This document shows positions 4,772 through 39,353 of a stretch of DNA of 64,000 bases, piece by piece. The DNA is from Ruminococcus sp. CAG:579 (GTDB lineage: Archaea > Thermoplasmatota > Thermoplasmata > Methanomassiliicoccales > Methanomethylophilaceae): the NCBI GenBank assembly GCA_963650175.1, contig CAVJLK010000003.1:8465-72464 (forward strand). The letters run 5' to 3'. The position numbers and the translations under genes were made by a program. Each line of letters starts with the position of its first letter. Positions within the stretch are counted from its first letter, which is position 1. The notes below the pieces were generated by a model. That model worked only from the letters and a program-made list of their open reading frames with translations. It searched no databases and was not told the DNA's origin.

Positions 4772-5895
4772 GACAAATGGGATTCGAACTGCCGCCCTCT
4801 CTGGGCATATACGGGAACGAGAAGATCGCCGAGGACGTCCTCTCCAGGATCTGGGGGAAGCGCGGGGTGTTCACATGCACCGTCGCCAACACCAGGACGT
4901 CGACCATTCCGGGACTCTCCGATGCGGGGGACACCCCGGAGCTCACCATGTTCACCGGCCCCGCGGATGCGGAGCTCCTGGTGAACGGCAGGACCACCTG
5001 CATGAAGGGCATCCCGATCAACCCCGGAGGGATCCCCACGCCCGCCACGCTCACACTGGCGGCCCTGAGGCTCTCCGGGATGCAGTACTTCATCGTCAAC
5101 GGCGGATGCTCCGTCGTACCCTACGTCCCGTTCTTCGACATGGGAGGGGAGTGCGGCGATTACATCACCACCGGGAAGGCGGTGAAGAACGCCCGCACCG
5201 AGTTCGAGAAGGGCGTCATGCTAGGGAAGCTCCTGGCGAGGTCCAACGACTTCGTCATCATCAGCGAGAGCTGCGCCGGAGGGACGACGACGGCACTCGC
5301 CGTCATGAAAGCGATGGGCGTCCTGAAGGAGAACCTGGTGAGCAGCAGCTCCCCCAACAACCCCAAGGAGCTGAAGACCAGGGTGGTCGACGAGGCGCTC
5401 GCGGCCGCCGGGATCGAACCCGGGGACAAGAAAGACGACCCCCTCGGAGCCATCGAGTGCGTCGGGGACCCCATGATGCCGGCCAACATCGGCATTATCT
5501 GCGGAGCTGCGCCCCATGTGCCGGTGATCGCCGGAGGCGGCACCCAGATGGGGGCCGTCATCGCGGGGGCGATCGCGATCCAACCGGAGATGATCGGGAA
5601 CCTGATCCAGGGGACCACCAGGTGGCTGATGGACGACGTCAACTCCAGCATGAGGAAGATAGTGGACGCCATCACCCCGGACGTCCCGTCCGTCTATGCG
5701 AACGTGGACTACTCCTCCAGTCCCTACGAGGGCCTCCAGGCCTACGAGTGGGGATACATCAAGGAGGGCGTCGGATGCGGCGGGTCCTCGGTCGGTGCGA
5801 TAGCGATGTCCGCCGGAAGGATAACCGCCAAGGACCTCTCCGACAAGGTGGAGGAGATCTACAGGGAGATAATGGGCGACGCCCTCGCTCCCTGA
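4768..5895 (+). CDS. cobT: Archaeal-type nicotinate-nucleotide:dimethylbenzimidazole phosphoribosyltransferase (CobT, UPF0284/TIGR00303 type)
   Basis: Motifs TRTSTIPGLSDAGDTPE, ISESCAGGTTTALAVMKAMG and SSSSPNNPKELK are typical of the MJ1598 family. The ATG at 4777 may be the true start. Confidence 0.8.
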   Translation: MRQMGFELPPSLGIYGNEKIAEDVLSRIWGKRGVFTCTVANTRTSTIPGLSDAGDTPELTMFTGPADAELLVNGRTTCMKGIPINPGGIPTPATLTLAALRLSGMQYFIVNGGCSVVPYVPFFDMGGECGDYITTGKAVKNARTEFEKGVMLGKLLARSNDFVIISESCAGGTTTALAVMKAMGVLKENLVSSSSPNNPKELKTRVVDEALAAAGIEPGDKKDDPLGAIECVGDPMMPANIGIICGAAPHVPVIAGGGTQMGAVIAGAIAIQPEMIGNLIQGTTRWLMDDVNSSMRKIVDAITPDVPSVYANVDYSSSPYEGLQAYEWGYIKEGVGCGGSSVGAIAMSAGRITAKDLSDKVEEIYREIMGDALAP

Positions 5896-6490
5896 AGAAA
5901 CTCCTGGCGAGGTCCAGCTCCCTCGGCGTGTTGACGTTCACGGCCAGTTCGGGCCAGTTGGTGTCGAACAGGCACTCGTCGAGGTAATCCCCGTTCAGGG
6001 TGCGCGGGCGGTTCATGATGCAGAGTCCGGACAGGACCCATTTGAATCCCCTGTCCTCCCTGATGTACGAGGGCGTGATGCCGATGCCGCGCACGGTCCT
6101 CTCGTCGACCACGGCGATGGCCGATTCCATGACCCTAGGGTCGAAGTACTCTATGAACCTGTCCACGACCTCCGTCGTCAGGAGGGGGAGGTCGGAGGGG
6201 CATGTGAGGACGTAGTCCCCTTCCATGACCTCGAAAGCGGTGTGGAGGTCGTCCATGAAGCTCTCACCGGAGGTGCGGACGGTCTCCGCCCCGATGCTTC
6301 TCAGATACTTCTCGGTCTCCAGGGTGTGGTCGCTCACCGAGACGAGCACGCGGTCGATGTGCTCCGACGCCGTGAGGGCGTCCAGGACCCTCCTGACCGT
6401 GGGGGCGTCGCCCACCATGAGCATGGGCTTCTCTATGCCGCACTGTCCCATGCGGGTCCCCTTCCCCCCGGCGTTGATCAGAGCCTGCAA
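5759..6490 (-). CDS. cobY: Adenosylcobinamide-phosphate guanylyltransferase (archaeal CobY, NTP-transferase fold)
   Basis: MQALINAGGKGTRMG nucleotidyltransferase motif, within the cob cluster. The last ~45 aa are an Arg/Pro-rich tail that lies antisense to the 3' end of cobT. Confidence 0.75.
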   Translation of the reverse strand: MQALINAGGKGTRMGQCGIEKPMLMVGDAPTVRRVLDALTASEHIDRVLVSVSDHTLETEKYLRSIGAETVRTSGESFMDDLHTAFEVMEGDYVLTCPSDLPLLTTEVVDRFIEYFDPRVMESAIAVVDERTVRGIGITPSYIREDRGFKWVLSGLCIMNRPRTLNGDYLDECLFDTNWPELAVNVNTPRELDLARSFFRERGRRPLSPCRSPPPCRRGPWRLSFRRTSLSHRPRTRRIRRPP

Positions 6491-6491
6491 C

Positions 6492-7319
6492 TCACATCAC
6501 CGCTCCGAAGACGAGGACCATAACCAGCATCGATGCGAACCTGGCGATCTCGTGGGAAGCGCCCAGGATGTCCCCGTTGACCATGCCGAAGACCCTGTTG
6601 GCCCTGCGGGCCATCAGATACGCGGATGCGACGGAAGCTACCATCCCGATAAGGGCGACCAGGACGGAATCGAGGAATCCGATCCACTCGCAACCCAGGA
6701 TCTGGTTGGTCGCGAACGTCCCGGCGATCGCGAAGACGAGGATCAGGACGAGGGAGATCCCACAGGATCTGACCATCGACCTTCCATTGGTCTGTTCGAC
6801 CTGCCTCCCGGCCATGCCGTTGCTGGGGAGGCCGTAGCATGCGGTCACGACCTGGGCGTTCTTGGTCAGCACCTCCGTCACGGGCGCGAGCACGATGATG
6901 AAGGCGAATGCCGCCGAATATAGGGAGAAATTCAGGAGCGTGACGATGAGCGCAACCCCCAATCCCCCCGCTCCGATCAGGGTGTCCTTCAGTGCGCGGA
7001 TGTGGTCGGCCTGCGTCCCGGCGACTATGGAACCGTCGCCGAAATCCGCCAGGCCGTCGAAATGCAGGAACCTGCTCCCGAAGTACACCGTCGCGAGTAT
7101 GGCGGCGGCCGCGAACAGGGACGACGATATGATCCCATGGTAGGACAGCAGCCTGAGCGCCGTCGCCTCCAGGAACACCACCAGCCCGATCAGCGCCCCC
7201 ACCAGCGGGGCCAGATGGAACCTGGAGTCCATGGCGTCCATGTCCTCCTGGGTGATGTCCTGCTGCCAGATGGTGAAGAACGACACCATCGCCTTGAGGG
7301 CGCTGCCCGCCATCGGCAT
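6492..7319 (-). CDS. cobS: Adenosylcobinamide-GDP ribazoletransferase (cobalamin synthase)
   Basis: The C-terminal 275 aa of track ORF 6492..8279, starting MPMAGSALKAMVSFFTIW. It is polytopic and carries the FHFDGLADFGDG motif typical of CobS. Confidence 0.85.
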   Translation of the reverse strand: MPMAGSALKAMVSFFTIWQQDITQEDMDAMDSRFHLAPLVGALIGLVVFLEATALRLLSYHGIISSSLFAAAAILATVYFGSRFLHFDGLADFGDGSIVAGTQADHIRALKDTLIGAGGLGVALIVTLLNFSLYSAAFAFIIVLAPVTEVLTKNAQVVTACYGLPSNGMAGRQVEQTNGRSMVRSCGISLVLILVFAIAGTFATNQILGCEWIGFLDSVLVALIGMVASVASAYLMARRANRVFGMVNGDILGASHEIARFASMLVMVLVFGAVM

Positions 7320-8245
7320 CCCCCCGCTTTCTTCGATATCATGGTGACGATGCGATCCATGAGAGAACCTTCCCCGGGCGCCTCCGCCCCTATGATCCGC
7401 GACGCTTCGGAGACGATCATCTCCGACTCCCCGCCGTTCCCGTCGTCGGCGGTCGAATCCGCCCTGTCGGCGACGAACCATGCCAGGTCCATCAGCGAAC
7501 GGACCCTCTCGTCGGAGAGCAGCGCCCCCAACCTCTCCGCGTACGTCTCCGGATCCATGCCGGACCCGGACATGCGGAGCAGCTTCCCCGCATCGAGACC
7601 CATCCTGCCGAGGATTTTCTCCGGGGTCAGCGGTATCGGGTGCTCGTTCCTGATGTCCAAAGCGTACCCGACGGCCGCCGATACTGCCCTGGCGGACGCG
7701 ATGCCTATCTTGGAGCCGGTCCCGGTCCAGGATATCCCGTCGACGCCCTTGGGCGATATGACGGCCATGGCATCGGACGTGGTCCCGGTCTCCCTGAACC
7801 CGTGCTCGGCCATCGCGACCGCCTTCGCTTCGACCAGGGGGATGAACAGGTTGACCTTCCCCTCCATGGTCAGCGGCACCGAGGAGACGATGCCGACGTT
7901 GATCGTCCCCGCCCTCATCTCCTCGGCCCTGCGCCTGGACACGGCGGAGTTCTCCGGATAGTCGCGGAGCTCCTCCCCCGCGATGACGTGGTTGCTCAAT
8001 CCGGCGGTGGCGAACGCCGCCGAATCCACGCCTTCGTAGGAGCACTCCTTGAGATTGAACACGTAGTCGACCTCGGCCGCGGTCATCATCCCCAGGGTGT
8101 CCTCCGGCAGCCCCAGGGCGTCCCTCACATGGATCGCGTCGTGCACGGGATGGGCGCAGTCGTAGTCCTTGGGGACCTGCATGATGAATGCCGCGCTCGT
8201 CTCCGACGCCCCGCCGTTCAATACGGCGCAGCTCAGGGACTCCAT
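7190..8245 (-). CDS. cbiZ: Adenosylcobinamide amidohydrolase CbiZ
   Basis: The portion of track ORF 7190..9238 starting at MESLSCAVLNGG. SAVLNGG-type and INVGIV motifs fit CbiZ. The last ~42 aa are a Trp/Arg/Pro-rich tail overlapping the cobS start. Confidence 0.75.
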   Translation of the reverse strand: MESLSCAVLNGGASETSAAFIMQVPKDYDCAHPVHDAIHVRDALGLPEDTLGMMTAAEVDYVFNLKECSYEGVDSAAFATAGLSNHVIAGEELRDYPENSAVSRRRAEEMRAGTINVGIVSSVPLTMEGKVNLFIPLVEAKAVAMAEHGFRETGTTSDAMAVISPKGVDGISWTGTGSKIGIASARAVSAAVGYALDIRNEHPIPLTPEKILGRMGLDAGKLLRMSGSGMDPETYAERLGALLSDERVRSLMDLAWFVADRADSTADDGNGGESEMIVSEASRIIGAEAPGEGSLMDRIVTMISKKAGGCRWRAAPSRRWCRSSPSGSRTSPRRTWTPWTPGSIWPRWWGR

Positions 8246-8316
8246 CCTCTCCGTGAAGCGGACGACGCCGACGGGCCATCCGTCGACCTCCTCGATGCTA
8301 ACAGAATCGATGAATC

Positions 8317-9333
8317 TCAGAATACCGACCCCCAGAACCCGAACAGGGCGTCCTCGCAGAACATCTGCACCTGTATGCCGACGGCCCCGTAGAGGATCAG
8401 GCACACGGTGAGCAGGAATATCATCGAGGCGAGCTCGATCAGCCTGCAGCACCTCTTGACATCGGCGGTGGTGGGCATGGGCCCCGTGCCCATGACGTAG
8501 ACCCCGCGCTTCTCCATCCTTATGCCCAGCACCGCCGCCGTGGCCGTCATGGACCATCCGCTGTTGGGGCTGGGGGTCTTGGCGTGCTCGGCCTTGGCCG
8601 CCGGGACGGACGCCCTCCAATCCATGCCGAGCAGGAGCCCGGCCAATGCGATGAAATACGGCGATACGCGCGACGTCAGGAATCCCAGGACGTCGTCGAA
8701 CTTCGCCGGGAAGAACCCGATCCTGGCGTACTTCTCGTTGAGATAGCCCCACATCGCATCCATCAGGTTGGCGCAACGGAACATCACCGCCCCGGGCAGC
8801 CCGAATACGCCGAAGTAGAGCATCGGCGAGTAGGCGCTGTCCACCAGGTTCTCGGATATCGTCTCGCAGCACGACGACGCCACGTGCTCCGCGTCCATCC
8901 CCCTGGTGTCGCGGCTCACGATCATCTGCACGCGGGCGTCGGCCTCCTCGAGGTTCCCGGCGTCCAGATCGTCGCAGATGGGGTCGCAGTGCTTCCTGAA
9001 CGAGAATATCGCGAAGGAGATCTTGAACACGAACACCGTCGCGATTATCCAGCAGGCCTCCCCGATTTCCGGGGACATCTCGGACACCCCTATCCGGAAC
9101 AGGGACGTGATGCACAGCCCGATCCCCGAGAACAGGATGAAGACGAGCAGATACGACAGGAACCCTATGACGGTGGCCTTCCGGGACCCGCGGTCTTGGA
9201 CCCTCCCGTCGATGGCGGACAGGATGTTCCCCATCCACCTCAGCGGATGAACGGAGTTCGGCACCTCGCCGACGAACCTGTCGATGAGCAGTGCGAGCAC
9301 GACTATGAGGATCGCGTCGAACCAGGGCTGCAT
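8317..9333 (-). CDS. cbiB: Adenosylcobinamide-phosphate synthase CbiB (CobD/CbiB family membrane protein)
   Basis: MQPWFDAILIVVLALLIDRFVGEVPNSVHPLRWMG is the classic CbiB N-terminus. 338 aa, polytopic. Confidence 0.9.
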   Translation of the reverse strand: MQPWFDAILIVVLALLIDRFVGEVPNSVHPLRWMGNILSAIDGRVQDRGSRKATVIGFLSYLLVFILFSGIGLCITSLFRIGVSEMSPEIGEACWIIATVFVFKISFAIFSFRKHCDPICDDLDAGNLEEADARVQMIVSRDTRGMDAEHVASSCCETISENLVDSAYSPMLYFGVFGLPGAVMFRCANLMDAMWGYLNEKYARIGFFPAKFDDVLGFLTSRVSPYFIALAGLLLGMDWRASVPAAKAEHAKTPSPNSGWSMTATAAVLGIRMEKRGVYVMGTGPMPTTADVKRCCRLIELASMIFLLTVCLILYGAVGIQVQMFCEDALFGFWGSVF

Positions 9334-9337
9334 CGGC

Positions 9338-10453
9338 TCACCCGTTCAGGACGGAATCCACCGCGGCGACGAAACGGCAGTTGCGCTCCTTGTCCTTGAC
9401 GCTGTACCTGACGTACGAGGAGAACTGCGGACCGAAGGACGAGCAGTCCCTCACGGCGATCCCGCGGGCCATCATCCTGGCCTTGAACTCCGGGGCGTCC
9501 ACGCCTATGGATTCCAGCGAATTGAAGTAGAAGAACGAGTCGGAGACATCCCCCGCTGGGAATCCTATCTCCTTGAGGGCGGAGTTCATCGCCTCCGACT
9601 CCACGGCCATGACCCCGGCCGCACGGTCCACGTGGTCGCGGCAGTCCCTCAGCAGCTTGATGGCCACGGACTGCTCCACCTGACCGACGTTCCAGGTCAT
9701 GCGGACCTTGTTCATGGCGTCGGCGAGGTCCGGACTCGCCATCCCGAACCCGATCCTTATGCCGGGTATGGCGAAGGATTTCGTCAGGGACGATGCCACC
9801 ACGAGATTGTTGAAACGGGACACGGTCCCCGACAGCGTGTTGTCCACGAACCCCGGCACCAGCTCGAGGAGGGTCTCGTCGAGGAACACGAGCACGCCCA
9901 TGTCCTCGCACTCCCTCACGATGCGGACCAGCTTGTCCTTGGGCTCGATGCGCCCGGTCGGGTTGTTGGGATTGCATATGTAGACCGCCTTCGCGCCGGC
10001 GGCCTTGCTGAGCAACTCGTCAGCGTCTATGCGGAAGTCGTCCTCCTCGCGGAGCTCCAGGGGATCGATCTGCGCTCCGACGATCCTGCACTGCTGAGTG
10101 TACTCCGCGAAGCTGGGGCACGGGATCACCACCCTGTCGCCCCTCTCGAAGAAGGCGTTGGGAACGCATCTGATTATGTCCGAGGACCCGGCGCCGACCA
10201 CGATGCTCTCCTCGGCGACGTCGAAGGCCTTGGAGATCACATCCTTCAGCTCCGCGCAGGAATCGTCCGGGTAATGACCCACGCCCTCGAGGGCGGAGAG
10301 GACCGTTTCCGCCAGGCATTCCGGCGGTCCGAAGGGGTTGAGATTGTGACTGTAGTCCTCTATCCCCTCGGTCCTCCAGGCCTGTCCGCCGTGGACCGTC
10401 TTGGGGAGACCCAGGAGCTCCTTCCTGGGGGTGATGCGTCCCTTCATGTGCAT
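9338..10453 (-). CDS. cobD: Class I/II aminotransferase-fold enzyme, most likely L-threonine-O-3-phosphate decarboxylase
   Basis: NPNNPTG and SLTKSFAIPGIRIG (PLP lysine) motifs. It lies 4 nt upstream of cbiB. It cannot be separated from HisC by eye. Confidence 0.75.
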   Translation of the reverse strand: MHMKGRITPRKELLGLPKTVHGGQAWRTEGIEDYSHNLNPFGPPECLAETVLSALEGVGHYPDDSCAELKDVISKAFDVAEESIVVGAGSSDIIRCVPNAFFERGDRVVIPCPSFAEYTQQCRIVGAQIDPLELREEDDFRIDADELLSKAAGAKAVYICNPNNPTGRIEPKDKLVRIVRECEDMGVLVFLDETLLELVPGFVDNTLSGTVSRFNNLVVASSLTKSFAIPGIRIGFGMASPDLADAMNKVRMTWNVGQVEQSVAIKLLRDCRDHVDRAAGVMAVESEAMNSALKEIGFPAGDVSDSFFYFNSLESIGVDAPEFKARMMARGIAVRDCSSFGPQFSSYVRYSVKDKERNCRFVAAVDSVLNG

Positions 10454-10523: not shown

Positions 10524-10597
10524 CGGGCCCGCCGGGATTCGAACCCGGGTCTGAGGCTCCGGAGGCCCCCATGCTATCCAAGCTATACTACGAGCCC
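10524..10597 (-). tRNA. tRNA-Arg (anticodon CCG)
   Basis: Hand-folded cloverleaf: acceptor GGGCUCG/CGGGCCC, anticodon stem GGGGC/GCCUC with loop CUCCGGA, and T arm CCGGG-UUCGAAU-CCCGG. Confidence 0.9.
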
Positions 10598-15046: not shown

Positions 15047-16126
15047 TTGTACCTGCACCGTCGTGCACATCGCATGAAGGAAGCCGGACACAGGGAGGCC
15101 GTGGAGGCGGCCCTGTCATTCGAACGGTACGAGAGGACGCCGGTCAACAACTTCGCCGTCGTCACCGCCGCCCGCTACGCCGGGAGGACCGTGGACGAGG
15201 CCCGCTGGAACCCCCGCATCTCCGCGGAGGTCGCGGTGGACTACGCCATCAAGACGGAATCGGATTTCGTCAAACCCGTGCTCGATTCCCAGATCCCCCT
15301 CCAGGACATGGGGATGAATGTCAGGTTCCCGGAGGACGACTACGGCAGCGTCCCCGGACACATCGTGGAGACGGCCGAGGACGTGGACAAGCTGCACATC
15401 TTCGACCCGGACAACGCATCCGAATGCCCCGGATTCACGAAGATCCGCGAAGCCCTCTCGGAGACGGCGTCGATCCTGCCTGAGGATCTGCACATCTGCG
15501 GTCTATCCTGGGGTCCGATCACCACCGCCGGATACCTGATGGGGGCGGAGAACATGATGTTCGCCACCATGGTGGATCCGGACCTCGTGAAGGTTCTGGT
15601 GGCCAAATCCGCCGAACTGGTGTCCGCCATGGAGACTTCCATGATCGAGAGCGGGGCCACCGTCATGTGGATGGCCGATCCGACCTCGTCCGAGGACCTG
15701 ATCTCCCCGGACATGTTCGACGACTACTCCAAGGCCGGGATCAAGAAGGTCATAGACGATGTGAGGGCGATGAGCGACGTCCCGACGTTCGTGCACATAT
15801 GCGGGAACACCGTCGACACCATCCCGCACCTGTTCGAGACCGGGGCGGACTGCCTGAGCTTCGACCACGCCGTCGATCCCGCGAAGGCGAGGGGCGCCGC
15901 AGGGAAGAAGCTGGCGCTCATGGGCAACGTCGATCCGGTGAGGGTCATCATGTCGGGGACCCCCGACGAGGTCAGGACCCACTCCTACAGCATCATAGAC
16001 GGGGCCGGCCAGGAAGGCGGGCTGATCCTCGCCCCCGGATGCGAGACGCCCATCTCCAGCCCGTTCGAGAACGTGCTGGCCATGGGGGAGGCTGGCAGAA
16101 CCTACTGGCAAACAAAATCATTATAA
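15047..16126 (+). CDS. URO-D-family methylcobamide:CoM methyltransferase (MtaA/MtbA type)
   Basis: The zinc-site motifs FVHICGNT and APGCE, and a length of ~350 aa, fit MtaA/MtbA. The likely start is the ATG at 15074 (MKEAGH). Confidence 0.8.
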   Translation: MYLHRRAHRMKEAGHREAVEAALSFERYERTPVNNFAVVTAARYAGRTVDEARWNPRISAEVAVDYAIKTESDFVKPVLDSQIPLQDMGMNVRFPEDDYGSVPGHIVETAEDVDKLHIFDPDNASECPGFTKIREALSETASILPEDLHICGLSWGPITTAGYLMGAENMMFATMVDPDLVKVLVAKSAELVSAMETSMIESGATVMWMADPTSSEDLISPDMFDDYSKAGIKKVIDDVRAMSDVPTFVHICGNTVDTIPHLFETGADCLSFDHAVDPAKARGAAGKKLALMGNVDPVRVIMSGTPDEVRTHSYSIIDGAGQEGGLILAPGCETPISSPFENVLAMGEAGRTYWQTKSL

Positions 16127-20166: not shown

Positions 20167-21826
20167 GACCCGGAGCGGGCGTTATGGAACGCTGCGCCCG
20201 CCGAGGGGGAAACGTCTTACGGCAGTGGGGAAGGCCTGCCGACACTTGATTATCCCATGCGGTCATCCCGAAGGCATGGTGAAGGTCTGGAGCGACGGGA
20301 GGACCAGGTGCTCCTGGGCGAACCCGTCGAACCCCAGGTACGTCGAGTACCACGATTCGGAGTGGGGCGTCCCGGTGCACGACGACGGGAAGCTGTACGA
20401 GATGCTCCTGCTGGAGTGCTTCCAGGCCGGACTGTCGTGGGAGTGCGTTCTGAACAAGCGGGACGCGTTCCGGGAGGCGTTCGACGGCTTCGATCCCGTC
20501 AGGATCGCGTCGTACGGCGAGGACGACGTCGCCAGACTGATGTCGGACCCCGGGATCGTCAGGAACCGCGCGAAGATCGTCACCACCGTCGAGAACGCGA
20601 AGGCGTTCCTGTCGATACGGGAGGAGTTCGGATCGTTCTCGGACTACCTGTGGAAATGGACGGATGGAACGGTGGTCGAAGAGAACGACGTCACCAGGAG
20701 CCCGTTGTCCGATGCGGTGTCGGACGATCTGAAGGAGCGCGGGATGAGATTCGTCGGATCGGTGACGGTGTACTCGTACCTCCAGGCGGTCGGAGTCATC
20801 CGGTCGCACCAGCCGGGGTGCTTCCTCTGCTCGCAGAAGATGCACGTCGATCGAGTAGACGCTCATGGTCGGCGAGTAGGTCTTGAGCTCGAAGGTGTCC
20901 ATCGAGACGGAATGCCCCGCCTCGGCGGACATGGCGGCCATCTCCTCACAGAGACGGGGGAAATCCTCCCTCTCGATGATCTTGTACATGTGGACGGTCC
21001 CGCCGCGGTTCAGATGATCCAATGCCAGCGGGAGGAACCTGTCGGCGATCTGCGGGAGGTTCATGACGATCCTGTCCGCCTTCGGGAGCGTCGGAACGAC
21101 GTCGTTGGCGTCGCCGGTTATGGGGACCAACGCATCCGCATGGTTGTCCCTGCGGTTCATGACCGCGAAGTGCTCCGCATCCGGATTCAGATCGATGGAA
21201 TAGACGACCGAGGGTTCGGCGAACCTGCACATCTGGATCCCGAAGGGGGCCACGCCGGCGAACATGTCGATGACGACCTCCCCGTCCTTAACCTGCGAAG
21301 CGACGCGGTGCCTCTCGCCGGCGAGCCTGGGATTGAAGTAGACCCTGGCGGGGTCGGTGTGCATCCGGGCGCCGAACTCCCTGTGGACGGTCTCGGAAGG
21401 CCCCTCCCCGGCCATCAATTCGAGGTCCCTGACCCTCAGGTCGCCCTTGACGCCGGAATCGGAGAACACGCAACGCAGGCTCCTGTTGGCGCGCATCATG
21501 GCCTCGCCGATCTCTTTGCGATAGGCGGAGAGCTCGTCGGGGACCTTGATCATCCCCACGTCGCCGACCACATCGAACGATATCGGGAGCAGCTCGGACA
21601 GCCCGTCCGGAAGATCGAGGAGATGCCTGTAGTCGCCCACGGGGCGGTCCTGCGGACGCAGCTCGCCCTCCTCGCACTCGAACCCCTCGACCGGGATCAG
21701 AACAGGCATCAGGAGCGAATCTCCGTCGCTGCCGATCCTGAACGACGCATCCAGGACCCCCTCTTCGAGCAGCCTCGTCCTGACGGATTCGCCGTCGCGC
21801 TTGGGGACCCTGATGCATCTGACCAT
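20150..21826 (-). CDS. trm5: tRNA (guanine37-N1)-methyltransferase Trm5/Taw22-like. The recognisable domain is ~20850..21826, but the ORF stays open to 20150.
   Basis: Starts at MVRCIRVPKRDGESV. The FDVVGDV, VIDMFAGVAPFGI (SAM motif I) and MNLP motifs fit Trm5. The tail lies antisense to tag. Confidence 0.7.
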   Translation of the reverse strand: MVRCIRVPKRDGESVRTRLLEEGVLDASFRIGSDGDSLLMPVLIPVEGFECEEGELRPQDRPVGDYRHLLDLPDGLSELLPISFDVVGDVGMIKVPDELSAYRKEIGEAMMRANRSLRCVFSDSGVKGDLRVRDLELMAGEGPSETVHREFGARMHTDPARVYFNPRLAGERHRVASQVKDGEVVIDMFAGVAPFGIQMCRFAEPSVVYSIDLNPDAEHFAVMNRRDNHADALVPITGDANDVVPTLPKADRIVMNLPQIADRFLPLALDHLNRGGTVHMYKIIEREDFPRLCEEMAAMSAEAGHSVSMDTFELKTYSPTMSVYSIDVHLLRAEEAPRLVRPDDSDRLEVRVHRHRSDESHPALLQIVRHRIGQRAPGDVVLFDHRSIRPFPQVVRERSELLPYRQERLRVLDGGDDLRAVPDDPGVRHQSGDVVLAVRRDPDGIEAVERLPERVPLVQNALPRQSGLEALQQEHLVQLPVVVHRDAPLRIVVLDVPGVRRVRPGAPGPPVAPDLHHAFGMTAWDNQVSAGLPHCRKTFPPRRAQRSITPAPGLIQPA

Positions 21827-21853
21827 GAGCGGATGATGCGCGACCCTGTTTAA
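20276..21853 (+). CDS. tag: DNA-3-methyladenine glycosylase I (Tag). The recognisable domain ends near 20850, but the ORF stays open to 21853.
   Basis: RCSWANPSNPRYVEYHDSEWGVP, FQAGLSWECVL and YSYLQAVGVIRSHQPGCF match Tag end to end. The remaining ~330 aa have shadow-ORF composition and lie antisense to trm5. Confidence 0.7.
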   Translation: MVKVWSDGRTRCSWANPSNPRYVEYHDSEWGVPVHDDGKLYEMLLLECFQAGLSWECVLNKRDAFREAFDGFDPVRIASYGEDDVARLMSDPGIVRNRAKIVTTVENAKAFLSIREEFGSFSDYLWKWTDGTVVEENDVTRSPLSDAVSDDLKERGMRFVGSVTVYSYLQAVGVIRSHQPGCFLCSQKMHVDRVDAHGRRVGLELEGVHRDGMPRLGGHGGHLLTETGEILPLDDLVHVDGPAAVQMIQCQREEPVGDLREVHDDPVRLRERRNDVVGVAGYGDQRIRMVVPAVHDREVLRIRIQIDGIDDRGFGEPAHLDPEGGHAGEHVDDDLPVLNLRSDAVPLAGEPGIEVDPGGVGVHPGAELPVDGLGRPLPGHQFEVPDPQVALDAGIGEHATQAPVGAHHGLADLFAIGGELVGDLDHPHVADHIERYREQLGQPVRKIEEMPVVAHGAVLRTQLALLALEPLDRDQNRHQERISVAADPERRIQDPLFEQPRPDGFAVALGDPDASDHERMMRDPV

Positions 21854-22674
21854 ATGGTGCCGTGCTGCATCCTGTGCCTCTTGGGCAGGACGTACAGCTC
21901 GCCGTCGTCGTCGAATCCGACCGAAGCATCCACATCGTACACGTCGCGGATGAGCTCCGGGGTGATGACCTCCTTCGGCTGGCCGATAGCGACGATCTCG
22001 CCCTTCTTCATGATGATGCACAGGTCGCAGTACCTCGCCATCAGAGAGATGTCGTGCTCCGCCACGAGGATGGTCATGTCCTTCTTGACCATGGCGTTGA
22101 GGTACTCCATCACATCCAGCTTGTACTTCATGTCCAGGTGCGATGTCGGTTCATCGACGAGCATCAATCTCGGTTCCTGCACGTACGCCTTGGCGATCAG
22201 CACCCTCTGCATCTCCCCGGAGGAGAGCATGTTGAGCTGACGGTCCTGGAGATGGAACACGCCGAACTTCTTCAGCGCGTCCTCCACCACCGACTCGTCG
22301 TCCTCGGTCTCCCACCAGACGTTCTTCAGATACGGGTACCTGCCGAGCATGACCGTCTCGAACACGGTCAACCCGAAGCTGTTCCTAAGCTCGGCCGGCA
22401 CGGTGGAGACGATCTTCGCGATCTCGGACGGAGTCTTCTTCAGAACCGACTCCCCGTCCACCAGGATGTCCCCGGAGGATGCGTCGTGCATCCTGTTGAT
22501 GCACTTCATCATGGTCGACTTCCCGCATCCGTTGGGTCCGATCAGACCGACGAGCATGCCGGGAGGGATCGAGTACGACACGCCGCGGACAGCGTGGTAC
22601 CCGTCGTCGTAGTACTTGTTGAGGTCCCTGACCTCCAGCAGAGGGGTCCCCTCGGGGACGTTGATCTCATCCAT
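21850..22674 (-). CDS. ABC transporter ATPase, BtuD/FepC (iron-siderophore/cobalamin) type
   Basis: Walker A GPNGCGKST, signature LSSGEMQR and Walker B LMLVDEPTSHLD. It overlaps the permease stop by 8 nt. Confidence 0.9.
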   Translation of the reverse strand: MDEINVPEGTPLLEVRDLNKYYDDGYHAVRGVSYSIPPGMLVGLIGPNGCGKSTMMKCINRMHDASSGDILVDGESVLKKTPSEIAKIVSTVPAELRNSFGLTVFETVMLGRYPYLKNVWWETEDDESVVEDALKKFGVFHLQDRQLNMLSSGEMQRVLIAKAYVQEPRLMLVDEPTSHLDMKYKLDVMEYLNAMVKKDMTILVAEHDISLMARYCDLCIIMKKGEIVAIGQPKEVITPELIRDVYDVDASVGFDDDGELYVLPKRHRMQHGTI

Positions 22675-25537
22675 CGTACATCCTCCCCTTCCTGATCAGG
22701 AGATAAGCGAACAGCGGAGCGCCTATGATCGTGGTGATGGCGCCCACCGGAAGCTCCAGAGGCACCATGACCATCTTCGCGAACAGATCGGCCGCCATCA
22801 TCAGCACCCCTCCGATCATCATCGAGGCTGGCAGCACCAGCCTGTGGTCGCCTCCGAGTATCATGCGGCACAGGTGCGGCACGACCAATCCGACGAACCC
22901 GATGATCCCGACGAAGGCCACGCACACCGATGCGAGGACGGACGCGAGGATGAGCATCCACCTGTTGAACCTGCGGACATCCAGACCCATCTGGCGGGCC
23001 TGGTCCTCGCCCAGGAGGACGAGGTTGAACTCCTTCGCCCACACCAGGGACACAAGGGACATCGCCACGGCCGGGATGGCCATGAGGATCGTCTGGCTCC
23101 AGGTTATGTTCGCGAAGGATCCGAACAGCCATGCCATGGCGTCGTTGAGCTTGCTCCCCGCCATGCTCAGCATGAGCGTCTGGAACGCGGAGAACACCAG
23201 TCCTACGATGATACCCGCGAGGACGTAGTTGATGGACGACCCTCCGGCCTTCTCGGCCAGGAGCATCGTGAAACCGAAGGCGATGAGACCTCCGACCATG
23301 GCCACCACCGGCGTCGCGTACGTGACGTCGGTGAAGAGGCCGAAAAAAGTGAAATTGAAAGCGATTGTCGCAACGGCGGCCACGCCGGCGCCCGCGGACA
23401 CGCCCATGATGTACGGGTCGACCATCGGATTGCGGATGATGGCCTGGTAGATCCCCCCGGCGACGGACAATCCGATTCCTACCGCAAAAGCGGCCACGGC
23501 GCGGGCGCACCTGGAATCGAAGACGATGGTCTCGTCGTAGGTCAGCGCATCCCCGCCCATCGCCTTGCCTATGGCAGACTTGAGGGTGGATAGCGTCTCC
23601 CCGAGCCCGTAGGTCCCCGACGGACCAACCGCCAGACTCAGGACGAACACCGCGAACGCAAGGATCGCGCCGATGATCAGGACGATGGCGAGACGACGCT
23701 TGTTGCGCTTGACCTTCGATCCCCCCTGGGGTCCGGAGAAGCGCTTGAGACTGGTGTTCACATACGCGAGGAACGGCATCCCCGATGCGCGCCAGCGAGT
23801 CAAGAAGATGGCTATCAGCACGATGAGGACGATGACTACGATCGCACCCAGCACGAGGCCGATGTTGATGTCCGATCCGCCTCCGCCCCCCGATGGGTCG
23901 GGATCCTTCGCGGATATCGCCCCGGAATAGGCGAACACTCCGCCGTCCGTTCCGAGATACAGCATCCCGTCTATCACGACGACGGGCGACATGCAGTACT
24001 GCTGTACCGCCTCGGGCTGGACGAAGGAACCCAAGAGATTCCCGTCCAGATCGAACATGAGGATCCTCCCGCCCCTGTCGTACTCTGCGACGATGAGCCT
24101 GTCCCCGTTGATCGTGGATATCGGCCCCTTGAAGGACTCGTATCCCGACGACAGGGTCTCCGACGCTCCCCCGACGGACATCCGCTTCAGCGAATCGGAA
24201 TTCATGTAGTACACGCCGGAGAACCCGTCGGTGACGATCGGGTTGACGTAGTTGCCGGTCAGCCCCGTCTCCTGCTTGAAGACCTCCTCGAACTTCCCGT
24301 CCGCAAGCCTGTATCCGGCAATCCCTCCGCGCATGGAATTCATGCCCTGGCCGTCGGAGAACGACAGCATCAGCACATCCCCCACGATCGAGGGCACGTT
24401 GGCGGAGCCGTAGAACTTCTCCTCGCCCGATACGGTCTTCGATATCTGGAAAACCGTGACGGCATCGACCATGTCCCCGGTGCCCCTGTCCATGGCGTAG
24501 AGGACGCCGTCGAGGGCGCCCATCAGAACGTATCCCCCGTAGACGGTCGGGGCGTTGTAGTACACCGAACCGCCGATCTGAGTCTTCCAGATCACATTGA
24601 GATCGGTGTCGATGCACCAGACGTACCCGGTGTTGCCGCCGAAGTAGATGACGCCGGAATCGTAGATCATGGTGGACGGTCCGGTCGAATAGAACATCCC
24701 CGTCAGGGTATGGTCCCTGGTCGTCGGGACGTCGAGGACCTTCACCTCGGAATCGTTCTCGCCGGGACCCGACAGCGGGATCCTGTAGACATGCCCGTTC
24801 GTGGCCGGGAGGAAGTAGTACCCTCCCGCGATAACGCCCGTGGCCGTCTCGTATCCTGCGCCCTTGGGATAATCGAAATGCCATATCTCCTCCCCCGTGA
24901 TGCGGTCGTAGCAGTAGAGCGCGGGGTCCGGCATGGATCCGGTGTACCCGCCTCCGGCGACCACGTACACGCGGTTCCCTTCCACGAGGGTGACCGCGTT
25001 GACGTAGTTGGGGTTCCCGTAGCTGTGGGTCCAGGCCGTGGATCCCTTCTCCGTCGACAGGACCGCGTCCTGCATCCCGGAATTGGAGGAGTCCCCGCGG
25101 ACCATGATCCACGAGGAGCTGTGATCGGGGGTCTCGACCGGGAGGATCCCCTCGGGATAGAACCCCAATGCGAGGGACCCGCCGGAATATGCGGACGAAG
25201 TGTCGAGCGTGCCCGTGACGTCGGTCCAAGCCCCATCGGTCCATGAATAGAGGCGCCAGGAGGAGGCGACCGTTCCCGTCGTCCTCTCCGAGAGACCGTC
25301 GACGGTGATTTCCGACCCCATGGCGAGTTCGGATCCTGCGCCCTTCACGGCCGACGTCAGAACATCGGCGACGGTCGTTCCCGAAGGGGAGGACCACGAG
25401 GTGTGGCCGTCCCCGCGATCTATGAGCACGCCGTCCCCTTCGGGATCGGCGCCGGATGAGTCGAACGCCGCGATGGACGATACGACCAGCAGCGACAATA
25501 CTATCAGAACAGTCCAGTTGACGCGGTTCGTCAGAAT
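22667..25537 (-). CDS. Fusion protein: signal anchor + DUF4430-like domain + PQQ-like beta-propeller + FecCD/BtuC-type ABC permease
   Basis: This is the C-terminal ~955 aa of track ORF 22667..26683. The N-terminus is RRILTNRVNWTVLIVLSLLVVSS. Propeller-type repeats follow (YCYDRITGEEIWHF, VWCIDTDLNVIWKTQ, LYAMDRGTGDMV). After a GGGGG linker there is a full 10-TM FecCD permease (RNPMVDPYIMGVSAGAG...TTIIGAPLFAYLL). The start codon is uncertain: there is no ATG or GTG, and the only in-frame TTG (25498) lies inside the anchor. Confidence 0.75.
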   Translation of the reverse strand: MLTNRVNWTVLIVLSLLVVSSIAAFDSSGADPEGDGVLIDRGDGHTSWSSPSGTTVADVLTSAVKGAGSELAMGSEITVDGLSERTTGTVASSWRLYSWTDGAWTDVTGTLDTSSAYSGGSLALGFYPEGILPVETPDHSSSWIMVRGDSSNSGMQDAVLSTEKGSTAWTHSYGNPNYVNAVTLVEGNRVYVVAGGGYTGSMPDPALYCYDRITGEEIWHFDYPKGAGYETATGVIAGGYYFLPATNGHVYRIPLSGPGENDSEVKVLDVPTTRDHTLTGMFYSTGPSTMIYDSGVIYFGGNTGYVWCIDTDLNVIWKTQIGGSVYYNAPTVYGGYVLMGALDGVLYAMDRGTGDMVDAVTVFQISKTVSGEEKFYGSANVPSIVGDVLMLSFSDGQGMNSMRGGIAGYRLADGKFEEVFKQETGLTGNYVNPIVTDGFSGVYYMNSDSLKRMSVGGASETLSSGYESFKGPISTINGDRLIVAEYDRGGRILMFDLDGNLLGSFVQPEAVQQYCMSPVVVIDGMLYLGTDGGVFAYSGAISAKDPDPSGGGGGSDINIGLVLGAIVVIVLIVLIAIFLTRWRASGMPFLAYVNTSLKRFSGPQGGSKVKRNKRRLAIVLIIGAILAFAVFVLSLAVGPSGTYGLGETLSTLKSAIGKAMGGDALTYDETIVFDSRCARAVAAFAVGIGLSVAGGIYQAIIRNPMVDPYIMGVSAGAGVAAVATIAFNFTFFGLFTDVTYATPVVAMVGGLIAFGFTMLLAEKAGGSSINYVLAGIIVGLVFSAFQTLMLSMAGSKLNDAMAWLFGSFANITWSQTILMAIPAVAMSLVSLVWAKEFNLVLLGEDQARQMGLDVRRFNRWMLILASVLASVCVAFVGIIGFVGLVVPHLCRMILGGDHRLVLPASMMIGGVLMMAADLFAKMVMVPLELPVGAITTIIGAPLFAYLLIRKGRMYDG

Positions 25538-26877
25538 CCTCCTCCCGTGATGGTGAGATAGTCCTTGTAGTCGTCCCCGACGTACTTCGGCAGGACGACG
25601 CCGTCGGTGAAGGCGTCCTTGTGGACCGCCCTCCCCATGAGCTCCATCATCTGAGCGACCCTCGGACCCGCGCGCGAGGCGCAGTCCGCCGCATCCCCGG
25701 CGAAGAGGTAGATGTCCCCGCCCTTGAACGCGGTGGTGCCCTTCCATTCCGAAGACATGGACGAGAGCATGGAATCGTACTCGGACTGGGTCGCGTTGTA
25801 GTCCGACGATACGATGATGATGACCTCGGGGTCGTACTTGGCGATGGTCTCGGCATTGACCTGGATCCATCCGTCCTCGCCCGAGTATATGTTGATCATG
25901 AACAGATTGTCCATGGCATCGGACACGTACGTGTTGGAACCGGATGCCCATGGGGATTTCACCGCGGAGAGCGCGACCATGACGCGCTTCTCCCACTTGA
26001 AATCGTATGATTCTATGGTGTCGTGCACCGTCTTGATCCCTTTCTCGAGATCGTCGATGCACTGCCCGGCCTCTTCCGTGCTCCCCAGCACGAGGCCGGC
26101 CTGATAGATGTTGTCGAGGACGGCCGTGACGGATTCCCCTCCGTCCAGGACCAGGACGTCGATCCCGGCGGTCCTGAGCTTCTCGGCCATCTTGATGTGG
26201 GCGCTCTGGGTGCTGATGCAGACCACCATGTCGGGGGACTGCTTGAGGATCGCCTCGAAACTCGGGTTGGTGAATCCCCCGGTCTCGGCTATCCTCCCGG
26301 ACTCCCTGCGCTCCTTGACCTCCTCGGGATAGTTGCTGTACCTGTCCGTTCCAACCAGGAGGTCCATCCCGCCCACGGCGCAGATGGTCTCCGTGCAGGA
26401 CGGGGCGAGAGAGACGACCCTCTCGGGCTTCTCGTATCCGTAGATCGAGTGCCCCGTGCCGTCCACGGCGGGCGTCGGCGTCTCCCCGGAGGCCACCAGG
26501 CCGTAGCAGACGGCGCTGAAATCGGATATGACTGCATCGGGATCGTCGGCGAGAACGGACCATTCCGTGTATCCCTTCTCCACCACGAAGAGCGTCCATG
26601 ATTGTCCGGACGCGGCAGCCTTCCCGTTGATCGAAACAATGGTCCCGCCGTCGGACACCAGCTCGTACCCGTGCCTCTCGCACAGGACCGAGAGCGCCTC
26701 GGAGGGGGAGAGGCGACCGTCGGTCGCCTGATAAGTGATTTCGCGGTCCCCGAAATCGACGAGGACGCCTTGAGAAGAATCGGTGGATGATGCGGAGGGC
26801 ACGACCGCGACCGTCACCGCCAGCCCGATGATCAGGATGGCCAGCGAGATGGCGACCTTGAGCCTGCTCCCCTGCAT
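25531..26877 (-). CDS. DUF4430-like domain fused to a BtuF/FhuD-type (Peripla_BP_2) substrate-binding protein
   Basis: 448 aa. There is a signal anchor, then GVLVDFGDREITYQA...SWTLFVVEKGYTEW. The binding-protein core follows (RVVSLAPSCTETICAVGG...DPEVIIIVSSD). Confidence 0.8.
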   Translation of the reverse strand: MQGSRLKVAISLAILIIGLAVTVAVVPSASSTDSSQGVLVDFGDREITYQATDGRLSPSEALSVLCERHGYELVSDGGTIVSINGKAAASGQSWTLFVVEKGYTEWSVLADDPDAVISDFSAVCYGLVASGETPTPAVDGTGHSIYGYEKPERVVSLAPSCTETICAVGGMDLLVGTDRYSNYPEEVKERRESGRIAETGGFTNPSFEAILKQSPDMVVCISTQSAHIKMAEKLRTAGIDVLVLDGGESVTAVLDNIYQAGLVLGSTEEAGQCIDDLEKGIKTVHDTIESYDFKWEKRVMVALSAVKSPWASGSNTYVSDAMDNLFMINIYSGEDGWIQVNAETIAKYDPEVIIIVSSDYNATQSEYDSMLSSMSSEWKGTTAFKGGDIYLFAGDAADCASRAGPRVAQMMELMGRAVHKDAFTDGVVLPKYVGDDYKDYLTITGGGF

Positions 26878-26895
26878 TGTTCCACCTTAAAGGTT

Positions 26896-27723
26896 TCAGT
26901 AGATGGGGGCCTTCTCCGGGTGGTTGTCGCCGTAGAAGTTCCCGTACACAATGAGCATCTGCGCGTAGTCGGCAGTCTTAAGGTTGCTCATTGACAAAGG
27001 AGAATCGATCCACTTGGATTTCTCCTCGACAAACTGGGTCCAATATGTATAGCCACTCTCATCGGAGATCATCTCTATGCCGAAGATGGATGTGATTCCC
27101 TTACCGTATTTCGCTTCGGAAGGCACATAGGGAATGTTGTACTCCTTCGCAGCATTGTCCCAAGCATCGAAGACGGTATCTCCGGTTCCGCTCACGCGGA
27201 AGTACATTCCGGAAAGAGACTCGACGGTGAACAGAGTGTCCCCGAAGGTCCAGTCCCAGATGGCTGCCTTGGAGACGTCGGTCACGGCAGGAGTCGAAGA
27301 ACCATCGCTGTAGACGACGGCGAAGTACTCGTTGTCCTTCGCATTCAATTTCTCCATAGTCTTGTCGGCAACCGTCCAAGCTCCGTTCGCATAGGTGAAC
27401 TGCTGCCACCAGGACCATTTCCCGTCCTTCTCATCCATTTCGATTCCGAAGAGAGATTTGATCCCGTCTCCATAATCGGCATGCGACGCCTCAAAAGGAA
27501 GGTCAAAGGCATCTGTAGCATCCACAAAAGCGTCGAAAACAGTCTTTCCATCCCCGTCAACCCAGAAGTAAACTCCATAGTTGTCCTGGATGAGGAACGT
27601 CACCGTAGCGGTCTCGTCGTTGTCCTTGTCCTTATCCTTACTCAGGCTCTGAGCCGCGAAGACCGCGACGATCAGGACGATGACGACAGCTGCCACGATG
27701 ATAATCTTCTTCTTGCTGTCCAT
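26896..27723 (-). CDS. Membrane-anchored protein with two tandem DUF4430-like domains
   Basis: 275 aa with an N-terminal TM segment. The pattern F.v.G.G.TVFDA......YG.GI.S.FGIEM.......W.QF occurs twice. Confidence 0.7.
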   Translation of the reverse strand: MDSKKKIIIVAAVVIVLIVAVFAAQSLSKDKDKDNDETATVTFLIQDNYGVYFWVDGDGKTVFDAFVDATDAFDLPFEASHADYGDGIKSLFGIEMDEKDGKWSWWQQFTYANGAWTVADKTMEKLNAKDNEYFAVVYSDGSSTPAVTDVSKAAIWDWTFGDTLFTVESLSGMYFRVSGTGDTVFDAWDNAAKEYNIPYVPSEAKYGKGITSIFGIEMISDESGYTYWTQFVEEKSKWIDSPLSMSNLKTADYAQMLIVYGNFYGDNHPEKAPIY

Positions 27724-27914: not shown

Positions 27915-28712
27915 TCACTCCTCCTCGATGATCTCCTCGGGGGCCCCGGCGAACTTCACCAGCGCGAACGCCTCCATGAAATGGAGCTTCCCGGGCAGGA
28001 CCAGCGTGAACAGCGGCTCGCCCAGGTCCATCTTCAGCAGGTCCTGGGGGTACCCGGCGAACACCTTCTCCTCCGGCGACCCGACCTTCGACGCCACGCA
28101 CAGAAGGGTCCTGTCGTCGATCAGGCCCTCCTTCCACTCCTCCTCGCCGGAGATGAGCCACTGGATCGCCTGATGGGCGGTCATGTAGCGCATCTCGTCG
28201 GCGCGGATGTCCAGCAGGATCATCGTGTGGAGGCCGCGCTTCTTGTTCTCCATGATGTGGTCGTAGGGGGACTTCGGGTGGTAGTTCTCCTCCATGAACG
28301 GCAGCGTGACCGTCCTCCCGAACTTGTAGTGCTGGAGTCCGAGCGACGTGGGGCAGGCGGAGAAGATCGATATCCCGTGGAACACGCGCACCGGGATCCC
28401 GGCCTCGGACGCCTGTATCCTCAGGTCCACGTGGGTGGTGGCCGACATGGTGTCGCCGGCGGTGATGAACCCGACCCTCATGGTCCTGGCATCCTCGATT
28501 ATATCGTCGCACTCCTCGACCTGGGAACGGTACAGGATGTGGATCCTCTTGCCGATCGCCGCCTCCAGGTCCTCCGGCTTCGTGCCTATCAGGACGGAGG
28601 TGTAGAACTCGGCGTAGATCTTGTCGCATTCCCTCAGCGCCTGGAGCGCCTTGACTGTCATTCCGTCCGCGCCGCTGAGACCCAGACCGACGAAAACGAG
28701 TTCGGATGCCAT
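27915..28712 (-). CDS. dph5: Diphthine synthase
   Basis: 265 aa. FVGLGL, ITAGDTMSATTH and HGISIFSA motifs of the tetrapyrrole-methylase fold fit Dph5. Confidence 0.9.
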   Translation of the reverse strand: MASELVFVGLGLSGADGMTVKALQALRECDKIYAEFYTSVLIGTKPEDLEAAIGKRIHILYRSQVEECDDIIEDARTMRVGFITAGDTMSATTHVDLRIQASEAGIPVRVFHGISIFSACPTSLGLQHYKFGRTVTLPFMEENYHPKSPYDHIMENKKRGLHTMILLDIRADEMRYMTAHQAIQWLISGEEEWKEGLIDDRTLLCVASKVGSPEEKVFAGYPQDLLKMDLGEPLFTLVLPGKLHFMEAFALVKFAGAPEEIIEEE

Positions 28713-38512: not shown

Positions 38513-38516
38513 GGGA

Positions 38517-39350: not shown

Positions 39351-39353
39351 TTC

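Follow-up and report, generated by a model that had tools for sequence, protein, structure and literature searches.

Synteny and structural models suggest, at a probability that we put at roughly 60%, that a four-gene locus in a Methanomassiliicoccales methanogen encodes a BtuFCD-type ATP-binding cassette (ABC) importer for corrinoids (cobamides and/or cobinamide) with its own cell-surface capture apparatus. The locus lies on the minus strand at 21850-27723 of the window, by which we mean the whole 64,000-nucleotide stretch analyzed (GenBank GCA_963650175.1, contig CAVJLK010000003.1, positions 8,465 to 72,464; deposited as Ruminococcus sp. CAG:579 and placed by GTDB in the archaeal family Methanomethylophilaceae). 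Three membrane-tethered ectoproteins display four homologous modules that resemble the beta domain of transcobalamin, and one of the three also bears a beta-propeller. In the fused clade to which the window belongs, this module-propeller protein, which in paralogous systems stands alone as a type-I membrane protein, is joined to the N terminus of the permease BtuC by its own transmembrane anchor. The locus is, on the comparative evidence, real and conserved, and a corrinoid-scavenging function is plausible from synteny and modeled folds; the original prediction, which had proposed such a system from the DNA alone, is thus partly supported.

Gene layout and the propeller-permease fusion

The four co-oriented genes were found in the open reading frames (ORFs), translations, and Pfam matches as first described, and they abut or overlap: an 18-nt gap follows the gene for the two-module protein P1, the TGA of the SLBB-BtuF gene overlaps the start of the fusion gene, and the fusion and ATPase genes share an 8-nt ATG/TGA overlap, a spacing that fits a single operon. 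By hydropathy, each of the three ectoproteins has one N-terminal hydrophobic segment. The features are listed below, SLBB denoting the small beta-grasp modules.

26896..27723, minus: P1, 275 residues; transmembrane anchor (residues 7-25), charged KD-rich stalk, two tandem SLBB modules
27304..27612, minus: SLBB module 1a of P1 (residues 38-140); strand-strand-helix-hairpin-strands by DSSP
26938..27240, minus: SLBB module 1b of P1 (residues 162-262); from the model, Foldseek, and hhalign
25531..26877, minus: SLBB-BtuF, 448 residues; transmembrane anchor (residues 8-26), SLBB module, PF01497 domain
26428-26778, minus: SLBB module of SLBB-BtuF (residues ~34-150); from hhalign to the fusion module
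25705-26418, minus: PF01497 class III binding domain of SLBB-BtuF (residues 154-391; E = 3.5e-29)
22667..25537, minus: fusion gene, ~954-956 residues; predicted signal peptide, SLBB module, propeller, Gly-rich linker, transmembrane helix, basic linker, permease
25151..25438, minus: SLBB module of the fusion (residues 34-129); AlphaFold2 confidence (pLDDT) >90
23903..25120, minus: modeled eight-bladed PQQ-like/BamB-like beta-propeller of the fusion (residues ~140-545)
23687..23890, minus: fusion junction; Gly5 (residues 550-554), transmembrane helix (residues ~557-582), basic linker (residues 583-617)
22691..23656, minus: FecCD/BtuC-type permease domain of the fusion (residues 628-949); PF01032
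21850..22674, minus: BtuD/FepC-type ABC ATPase, 274 residues; Walker A GPNGCGKST, signature LSSGE, Walker B LMLVDEPTSHLD

By its domain matches, the core of the locus is that of a type II ABC importer of the FecCD/BtuC family, comprising a permease, an ATPase, and a class III binding protein. FecCD (PF01032) matched the fusion protein over nearly its whole profile (positions 3-311 of 311; 273.5 bits against a cutoff of 26.5; E = 2.5e-81), ABC_tran (PF00005) matched the ATPase at 108.7 bits (E = 4.4e-31), and Peripla_BP_2 (PF01497) matched the 448-residue protein at 102.3 bits (cutoff, 27.5), which bears out the predicted BtuF/FhuD-type binding protein and BtuD/FepC-type ATPase. The ATPase translation carries the motifs GPNGCGKST, LSSGE, and LVDEPTSHLD, and its gene overlaps the permease gene by 8 nt.

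The joining in frame of a Gly5 linker, an extra transmembrane segment, and a complete FecCD/BtuC permease was upheld by translation, Pfam, and hydropathy. Searches of protein databases returned 43 full-length fusion clusters of ~950 residues at 45-91% identity, all with PQQ and FecCD domains. The clusters derive from assemblies at NCBI, ENA, JGI, and Logan that belong to Methanomethylophilaceae, Methanoplasma, and other Thermoplasmata. In the GTDB representative genomes, a pattern scan gave 59 loci from ~47 assemblies and recovered the unfused paralogues, nearly all of which had been missed by the word-indexed protein searches. Every locus with enough sequence keeps the order SLBB-BtuF, SLBB-propeller-transmembrane segment, permease, ATPase. 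Propeller and permease share one ORF in 16 of the fetched loci and are separate adjacent genes in ~40 Methanomassiliicoccales loci, as in P0047, a 620-residue type-I membrane protein that begins with a signal peptide and is anchored at its C terminus; the gene for a 381-residue permease follows 15 nt later. In a neighbor-joining tree of the permease domain, the window and all fused loci but one formed a single clade, sister to the unfused systems. The exception, L064 (Methanomassiliicoccaceae archaeon COG_1), is fused via a longer acidic linker and is nested deep among unfused loci, which suggests a second, independent fusion if that single assembly is correct. In several genomes, a fused system occurs together with one to three unfused paralogues, in agreement with the multiple BtuC clades reported for Methanomassiliicoccales (PMC10804542).

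The protein clusters from independent assemblies, the fused loci, and their grouping in the tree together show that the fusion is genuine and conserved; conservation among relatives, which the original prediction had named as a check, holds for these 43 clusters and 16 fetched loci, while most relatives, being paralogous systems, have separate genes. That an indel or a lost stop codon joined two genes in the assembly or the reads might be suspected from the ~40 related loci that keep separate propeller and permease genes ~15 nt apart, but we rejected this artefact as extremely improbable, because the fused ORF recurs, at identities as low as 45%, in assemblies and pipelines that are independent of one another, the fused ORFs group in a single clade, and the transmembrane helix and basic linker of the junction are kept in sequence and topology.

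The junction itself points to how the fusion arose. SGGGGGS is followed by a very hydrophobic helix (~557-582) and then by a linker with a net charge of +8, an arrangement that obeys the positive-inside rule; the extra helix is topologically required, since BtuC starts in the cytoplasm. The same junction corresponds to the C-terminal transmembrane anchor of unfused P0047 followed by the N-terminal tail of the separate permease. The fusion thus joined the anchor of the ectoprotein to the N-terminal tail that BtuC has in the cytoplasm, for which it is enough that a stop codon is lost and a short spacer is read through. At its N terminus, the fusion protein does have the hydrophobic segment that was read originally as a signal anchor; given the type-I topology of P0047, a signal peptide that is cleaved off is the likelier reading.

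The 5' end of the fusion gene is less regular. Its ORF runs for 956 codons from an ATT at 25537, and the start is approximate: a canonical start codon is absent at the conserved position (25498-25546, minus). Relatives have TGATG, in which the BtuF stop codon overlaps an ATG start; the window and loci L007 and L008 have TGACG. The ancestral ATG has become ACG at 25531-25529 in the window, 6 nt after a Shine-Dalgarno-like run, GGAGGAGGA. From this arrangement, the start is probably the ACG at 25531, or else the CTG at 25534 or the ATT at 25537, and the region suggests either near-cognate initiation or termination-reinitiation coupling. The start called by NCBI is a downstream TTG that gives 943 residues and loses the charged n-region of the signal peptide.

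The PQQ-like propeller that had been predicted was recovered by both profile and model. PQQ_2 (PF13360) matched residues 291-416 of the fusion protein above its gathering threshold (44 bits against 27.6; E = 2.8e-11); the PQQ-dehydrogenase signature PF01011 stayed under its cutoff. A model of residues 1-567 (pLDDT, 89.2; predicted TM-score, 0.87) has about 33 strands and, in it, the propeller is an eight-bladed PQQ-like/BamB-type fold with a net charge of -20. Foldseek placed it with the eight-bladed BamB, YxaL, the designed Cake8, and tetrathionate hydrolase (E, ~1e-15; TM-score normalized to the target, 0.75-0.82). No BtuG structure was among its 50 best PDB matches, and homology to BtuG, the seven-bladed B12-capturing propeller of Bacteroides, was rejected on this ground and on the blade count, as the original prediction had anticipated in calling the two unrelated.

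Other observations on the locus concern its composition and flanks. The third-position GC content of P1 is 0.70, compared with 0.83-0.92 in the BtuF, ATPase, and flanking housekeeping genes, which could reflect amino acid composition, expression level, or a different history. Upstream of P1 (27724-27790, minus) lies a TATA-like element, CTTAAAATA, and a perfect short hairpin, CGGAC-ATTTG-CGTCCG, immediately precedes the P1 start codon; judged by its sequence, this region may be a regulatory site. Rfam detected neither a riboswitch nor any other RNA close to the locus, the only hit being a tRNA at 10524-10597. Lineage-specific elaborations are seen in L005/L006 (444-2285), P0041, and P0043, with a binding protein of up to 613 residues that has Flg_new repeats and fusion proteins of up to 1087-1101 residues that have a second N-terminal SLBB-like module. 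Many loci with the archaeal, Methanomassiliicoccales-type synteny occur in "cleanbin" metagenome-assembled genomes titled Lachnospiraceae, Bacteroides (including Bacteroides ovatus), Eggerthellaceae, Faecalibacterium, and others (L007, L008, L024, L031, L037, L045, L047, L050-L053, L055, L061, and L065). Since the identity of these contigs to the window reaches 87% and their synteny is archaeal, these titles are most likely errors of binning or labeling.

A divergent family of small beta-grasp modules

The four modules had been called DUF4430-like, after a Pfam family related to the corrinoid-binding beta domain of transcobalamin (TC) and intrinsic factor (IF). Sequence profiles did not bear this out. 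P1 had no Pfam match and no meaningful NCBIfam match, and the N-terminal ~150 residues of the 448-residue binding protein were likewise without a Pfam match. PF14478 (DUF4430) had no match at E<=10 in the three N-terminal regions, where Pfam at that threshold returned only noise (e.g., Pilin_N and Amidase_2), and it was absent from the precomputed Pfam annotations of 47+31 homologues. A P1-family profile run against PDB sequences found no TC or DUF4430 protein, only spurious hemoglobin and flavodoxin fragments, and hhalign gave a probability of <9% for a canonical DUF4430 segment (residues 55-165 of P0149) against the module profiles. Because all three approaches were negative, sequence-level membership in DUF4430 was dropped and only the claim at the level of the fold was retained; of the profiles that the original prediction had named, PF13360, PF01497, and PF01032 matched and PF14478 did not.

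At the level of the fold, the prediction stood. An AlphaFold2 model of P1 built with 27 homologues (mean pLDDT, 85.9) has two tandem beta-grasp domains, and DSSP gave the order E-E-H-E-E-E-E-E-E in each module of the P1 and fusion models, recurring at residues 37-127 of the fusion ectodomain. Foldseek matched the P1 model to PDB entries 5no0, 5np4, 2pmv (IF), 4kki (haptocorrin), 2bb5, and 3u7z at a probability of 1.0, full-length transcobalamins being among the matches. TM-scores against TC, IF, haptocorrin, and 3u7z were 0.65-0.71 normalized to the target (root mean square deviation [rmsd], 3.6-3.9 A): 0.65-0.66 (rmsd, 3.9 A) for the isolated human TC beta domain in its apo (5no0) and cyanocobalamin-bound (5np4) forms, and 0.71 for 3u7z, a DUF4430 protein from structural genomics. 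Linear di-ubiquitins matched the P1 model too, at an rmsd of >12 A, so the fold signal is partly that of any tandem beta-grasp protein. The TC/IF match was modeled directly on the P1 modules, and the other two modules are tied in by hhalign: module 1a aligned with 1b at 100% probability (E = 9e-41) and with the fusion module at 95% (E = 3e-8), and the fusion module aligned with the N-terminal module of SLBB-BtuF at 97% (E = 5e-11). These profile alignments indicate that the four modules are mutually homologous; taken with the fold matches, they point to four copies of one divergent family, and the models place its members within the fold of the TC-like SLBB clade. Tryptophan and other aromatic positions are kept in the modules, with W48, W94, W99, and W104 invariant.

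Comparison with described SLBB proteins sets the family in context. The modules share with the beta domains of TC, IF, and haptocorrin, and with the SLBB superfamily, a fold that includes the hairpin after the helix; the alpha-barrel partner domain of the TC family is lacking at this locus. Extracellular location and several paralogues per operon are features that the locus has in common with the TC-like SLBB clade (PMC1796856), although PF14478 and sequence profiles do not detect its modules, the partner transporter in the published systems is CbiO/CbiQ of the ECF class rather than BtuFCD-type, and fusions of SLBB modules to BtuF and to a permease are not described there. Prokaryotic TC-like extracellular SLBB proteins were predicted to be B12 scavengers, and an SLBB-propeller fusion in Clostridium was noted, in 2007 (PMC1796856); the pairing of a TC-like domain with a propeller as a predicted B12 scavenger is therefore already known and is not new here.

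Modules of the P1 type also occur outside the transporter operon. P0149, a protein of 1088 residues that is probably a bacterial surface protein, has a Pfam DUF4430 match at residues 74-145 (E = 3.6e-10), a weak PQQ_2 match, a P1-type module at residues 763-856, and a dockerin-like C terminus, so that the classical and divergent module types co-occur with a propeller in one protein. In L004, a 337-residue protein with two modules and an MDSK... N terminus like that of P1 precedes the BtuF of an unfused system. Giant adhesin-like proteins of 700-2200 residues with Big_2, LRR_5/BspA, Flg_new, and PKD repeats carry P1-type modules and often adjoin unfused btu paralogues (L004 1-7590, L041 11801-15745, L064 11903-15784, and P0136-P0200). 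These adhesin-borne modules recall both the btuFCD genes found beside adhesin-like proteins in strain LGM-RCC1 (PMC10804542) and BtuH2, whose binding domain is carried on Ig-like stalk domains (PMC13616437).

Substrate, mechanism, and competing explanations

The strongest evidence on the substrate is synteny, since sequence similarity leaves the choice undecided. The predicted set of corrinoid genes is present in the window, where the six cob and cbi genes were located by tblastn with Pfam-annotated genes of L001 (37-69% identity).

4783..10435, mixed strands: corrinoid salvage/nucleotide-loop cluster, with cobT on the plus strand and cobY, cobS, cbiZ, cbiB, and cobD on the minus strand
4783-5880, plus: cobT
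5882-6490, minus: cobY
6495-7334, minus: cobS
7574-8320, minus: cbiZ
8338-9333, minus: cbiB
9341-10435, minus: cobD
15047-16126, plus: URO-D/MtaA-type gene, predicted earlier as an MtaA-type methyltransferase

CbiZ, CbiB, CobY, CobS, and CobT make up the archaeal route of cobinamide salvage and nucleotide-loop assembly. In four fused lineages, Ca. Methanoplasma (L001/L021), L005/L006, OY781044 (L016), and RumEn M2 (L019), which branch more deeply than the others within the fused clade, cobD (aminotransferase-type), cbiB, cbiZ, cobS, and cobY lie directly downstream of the ATPase gene, in a run that begins ~50-100 nt past its stop codon, and cobT comes next on the opposite strand. In the window, the cluster is 11.4 kb from the ATPase gene, and the transporter is flanked by a dph5-like TP_methylase gene and trm5/tyw2 (20843-21826 and 27915-28712). 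The dph5-like methylase gene and trm5 are adjacent in Ca. Methanoplasma (L001 1395-3194), whose transporter abuts the cob genes; as the transporter splits this pair in the window, the cluster was relocated in the window's sublineage. No cob genes were found within 8 kb of the ~40 unfused paralogous loci, so the substrates of those paralogues are less certain.

Several findings weigh against a corrinoid importer with surface capture. The cob genes are not next to the transporter in the window and its nearest relatives. No NCBIfam equivalog cutoff for BtuC, BtuD, or BtuF was reached: the BtuC model NF007081, the best for the permease, scored 213.6 bits (cutoff, 461); the corrinoid ATPase model NF007082, among the top models for the ATPase, scored 203.6 bits (E = 5e-60; cutoff, 537); and the BtuF model NF002894 scored 51.4 bits on the binding protein (cutoff, 234). 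The binding protein is as near to heme and iron binders (4m7o, ShuT 2r7a, and IsdE) as to BtuF. The propeller is unlike BtuG, the modules escape DUF4430 profiles, and their fold is shared in part with di-ubiquitin, as described above; moreover, a TC-like alpha/beta pair of Lactobacillus sakei has been proposed to take up heme (bioRxiv 10.1101/864751). Against this background, corrinoid import with cell-surface capture is still the best reading, resting as it does on gene neighborhood and modeled fold: the claim of a corrinoid substrate is supported by synteny in the four fused lineages, and not by the binding protein, which is unseparated from heme binders.

According to this corrinoid-import model, scarce corrinoids would be caught on the outside of the cell by the SLBB modules, and possibly by the acidic face of the propeller, from which the tethered BtuF domain would receive them. 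BtuC is active as a dimer, so that a single transporter would have two module-propeller units next to the docking site of the binding protein, and BtuF may dock on the dimer between them to deliver the corrinoid to BtuC2D2, with import driven by ATP hydrolysis. Incomplete or "wrong" corrinoids, once imported, would then be remodeled by CbiZ, CbiB/CobD, CobY, CobS, and CobT. That propeller and permease became fused, probably more than once, argues for a propeller protein that functions while physically touching the permease; the identity of its ligand does not follow from that. A more far-reaching version holds that this is a covalently integrated corrinoid capture-and-import machine that evolved in Methanomassiliicoccales independently of Bacteroidota, in which the modules (on P1, on BtuF, and on the giant adhesin-like stalks of paralogous systems) and a cobamide-binding acidic propeller, fused to the BtuC dimer at least twice, relay the ligand to BtuF; from the sequences and models we can offer this only tentatively, at somewhat less than even odds.

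Among the alternatives, the one that survives best accepts a corrinoid importer but assigns its propeller and SLBB modules to scaffolding, anchoring in the envelope, or adhesion between cells instead of ligand carriage, for example, to keep BtuF close to the permease in a cell that lacks a wall or to attach the archaeon to corrinoid-producing bacteria. The propeller could indeed be purely structural: its nearest structures, BamB and YxaL, are protein interaction scaffolds, P1-type modules occur in giant adhesin-like proteins, often beside unfused btu paralogues, and partner domains have been suggested to tether SLBB proteins to the surface (Burroughs et al., PMC1796856). We consider this explanation unlikely, because scaffolding alone poorly explains why a single operon should encode a corrinoid-carrier fold four times, the four invariant tryptophans of the modules suggest a binding surface, and the isolated TC beta domain binds cobalamin (PDB 5np4).

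A different substrate is a shade less likely again. Here the modules and binding protein would recognize a noncorrinoid macrocycle, and the system would import heme, another tetrapyrrole (e.g., an F430 or sirohydrochlorin precursor), or an iron chelate. NCBI names homologues "iron chelate uptake ABC transporter family permease," and the binding domain matches PDB sequences of 4m7o, an uncharacterized "iron-binding protein" (E = 4.5e-18), and the heme binder ShuT 2r7a (E = 3.7e-8) ahead of BtuF (E = 5e-6). Its NCBIfam scores for BtuF (E = 8e-14) and IsdE (E = 2e-12) are alike, so that neither NCBIfam nor PDB sequence similarity separates B12 from heme; the proposal for L. sakei and the ~40 unfused loci with no cob genes inside 8 kb also favor a noncorrinoid ligand. 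The adjacency of cobD-cbiB-cbiZ-cobS-cobY/cobT to the transporter in four fused lineages, the rank of BtuC as top NCBIfam permease model, and the match of the module fold to corrinoid carriers all stand against it.

Relation to known systems and significance

The system shares a FecCD permease, an ABC ATPase, and a class III binding protein with BtuCD-F of Escherichia coli and haloarchaeal BtuFCD (NCBIfam NF007081/NF007082), and the link to cobinamide salvage genes expected for archaeal corrinoid transporters is seen here too. It differs in that the permease has ~600 extra N-terminal residues (SLBB module, propeller, and transmembrane helix), BtuF is membrane-anchored with its own SLBB module, an extra two-module protein is present, and scores lie under all BtuC/D/F equivalog cutoffs. 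The closest parallel in concept is the surface cobamide relay of Bacteroides thetaiotaomicron, BtuJ/BtuH/BtuG-BtuB, which includes a BtuGH fusion of a B12-binding domain to a propeller (PMC13616437). Several tethered extracytoplasmic binders upstream of BtuFCD, a small binding domain N-terminal to a propeller, and multiple paralogous systems per genome are common to both. Homology is lacking, however, and the function here is predicted. BtuG is a seven-bladed lipoprotein that caps the outer-membrane TonB-dependent BtuB, whereas the modeled propeller here is eight-bladed and sits on a cytoplasmic-membrane permease in an archaeal context without BtuB; the tether is a transmembrane helix and permease fusion in place of a lipid anchor, and the small domains are beta-grasp (SLBB) in place of the BtuH/BtuJ folds. 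BamB and YxaL, the best structural matches of the propeller, are likewise eight-bladed and PQQ-like, but the BAM complex and outer-membrane context of BamB have no place here, where partners and location are different.

As in GlnPQ/OpuA-type importers, an extracytoplasmic domain is attached covalently to the permease, at fixed stoichiometry. Those importers are type I and carry the substrate-binding protein itself, whereas here a type II permease carries a propeller and an SLBB module and the binding protein is separate. A search of full-text literature, mostly outside subscription journals, found no type II importer permease with a propeller, no SLBB-BtuF fusion, and no description of this archaeal system; the study that noted many BtuC clades described neither propeller nor TC-like modules (PMC10804542).

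The window holds a second importer with an ectodomain-permease fusion, GlnP-like, at 44526-47505 (minus): a 730-residue protein with two SBP_bac_3 domains and BPD_transp_1 (45313-47505, minus), followed by an ABC ATPase (44526-45341). Type I-C-like CRISPR-Cas genes lie at 36822-44298 (minus), including Cas3 (41917-44298), Csd1/Cas8c (39354-41225), and Cas1 (36822-37952). Their third-position GC of 0.66-0.79, lower than the ~0.9 of surrounding genes, suggests a horizontally acquired island.

Methyl-reducing methanogens of the gut and rumen need corrinoid proteins for every methyl transfer and are rivals of bacteria for cobamides. How Methanomassiliicoccales handle B12 has been put forward as a means of influencing methane from ruminants (PMC10804542). 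If the corrinoid-import model is correct, the locus would define an archaeal counterpart of the Bacteroides surface relay and would add a family of candidate corrinoid-binding domains that is invisible to Pfam, and the fusion would be a natural "Rosetta stone" indicating that an accessory ectoprotein acts in contact with a type II ABC permease. The locus also yields soluble constructs suited to work on binding and selectivity. Should the more tentative version, that of a covalently integrated machine, hold as well, type II ABC importers would gain a new architecture, and the system would be the first extracellular relay for cobamides in an archaeon.

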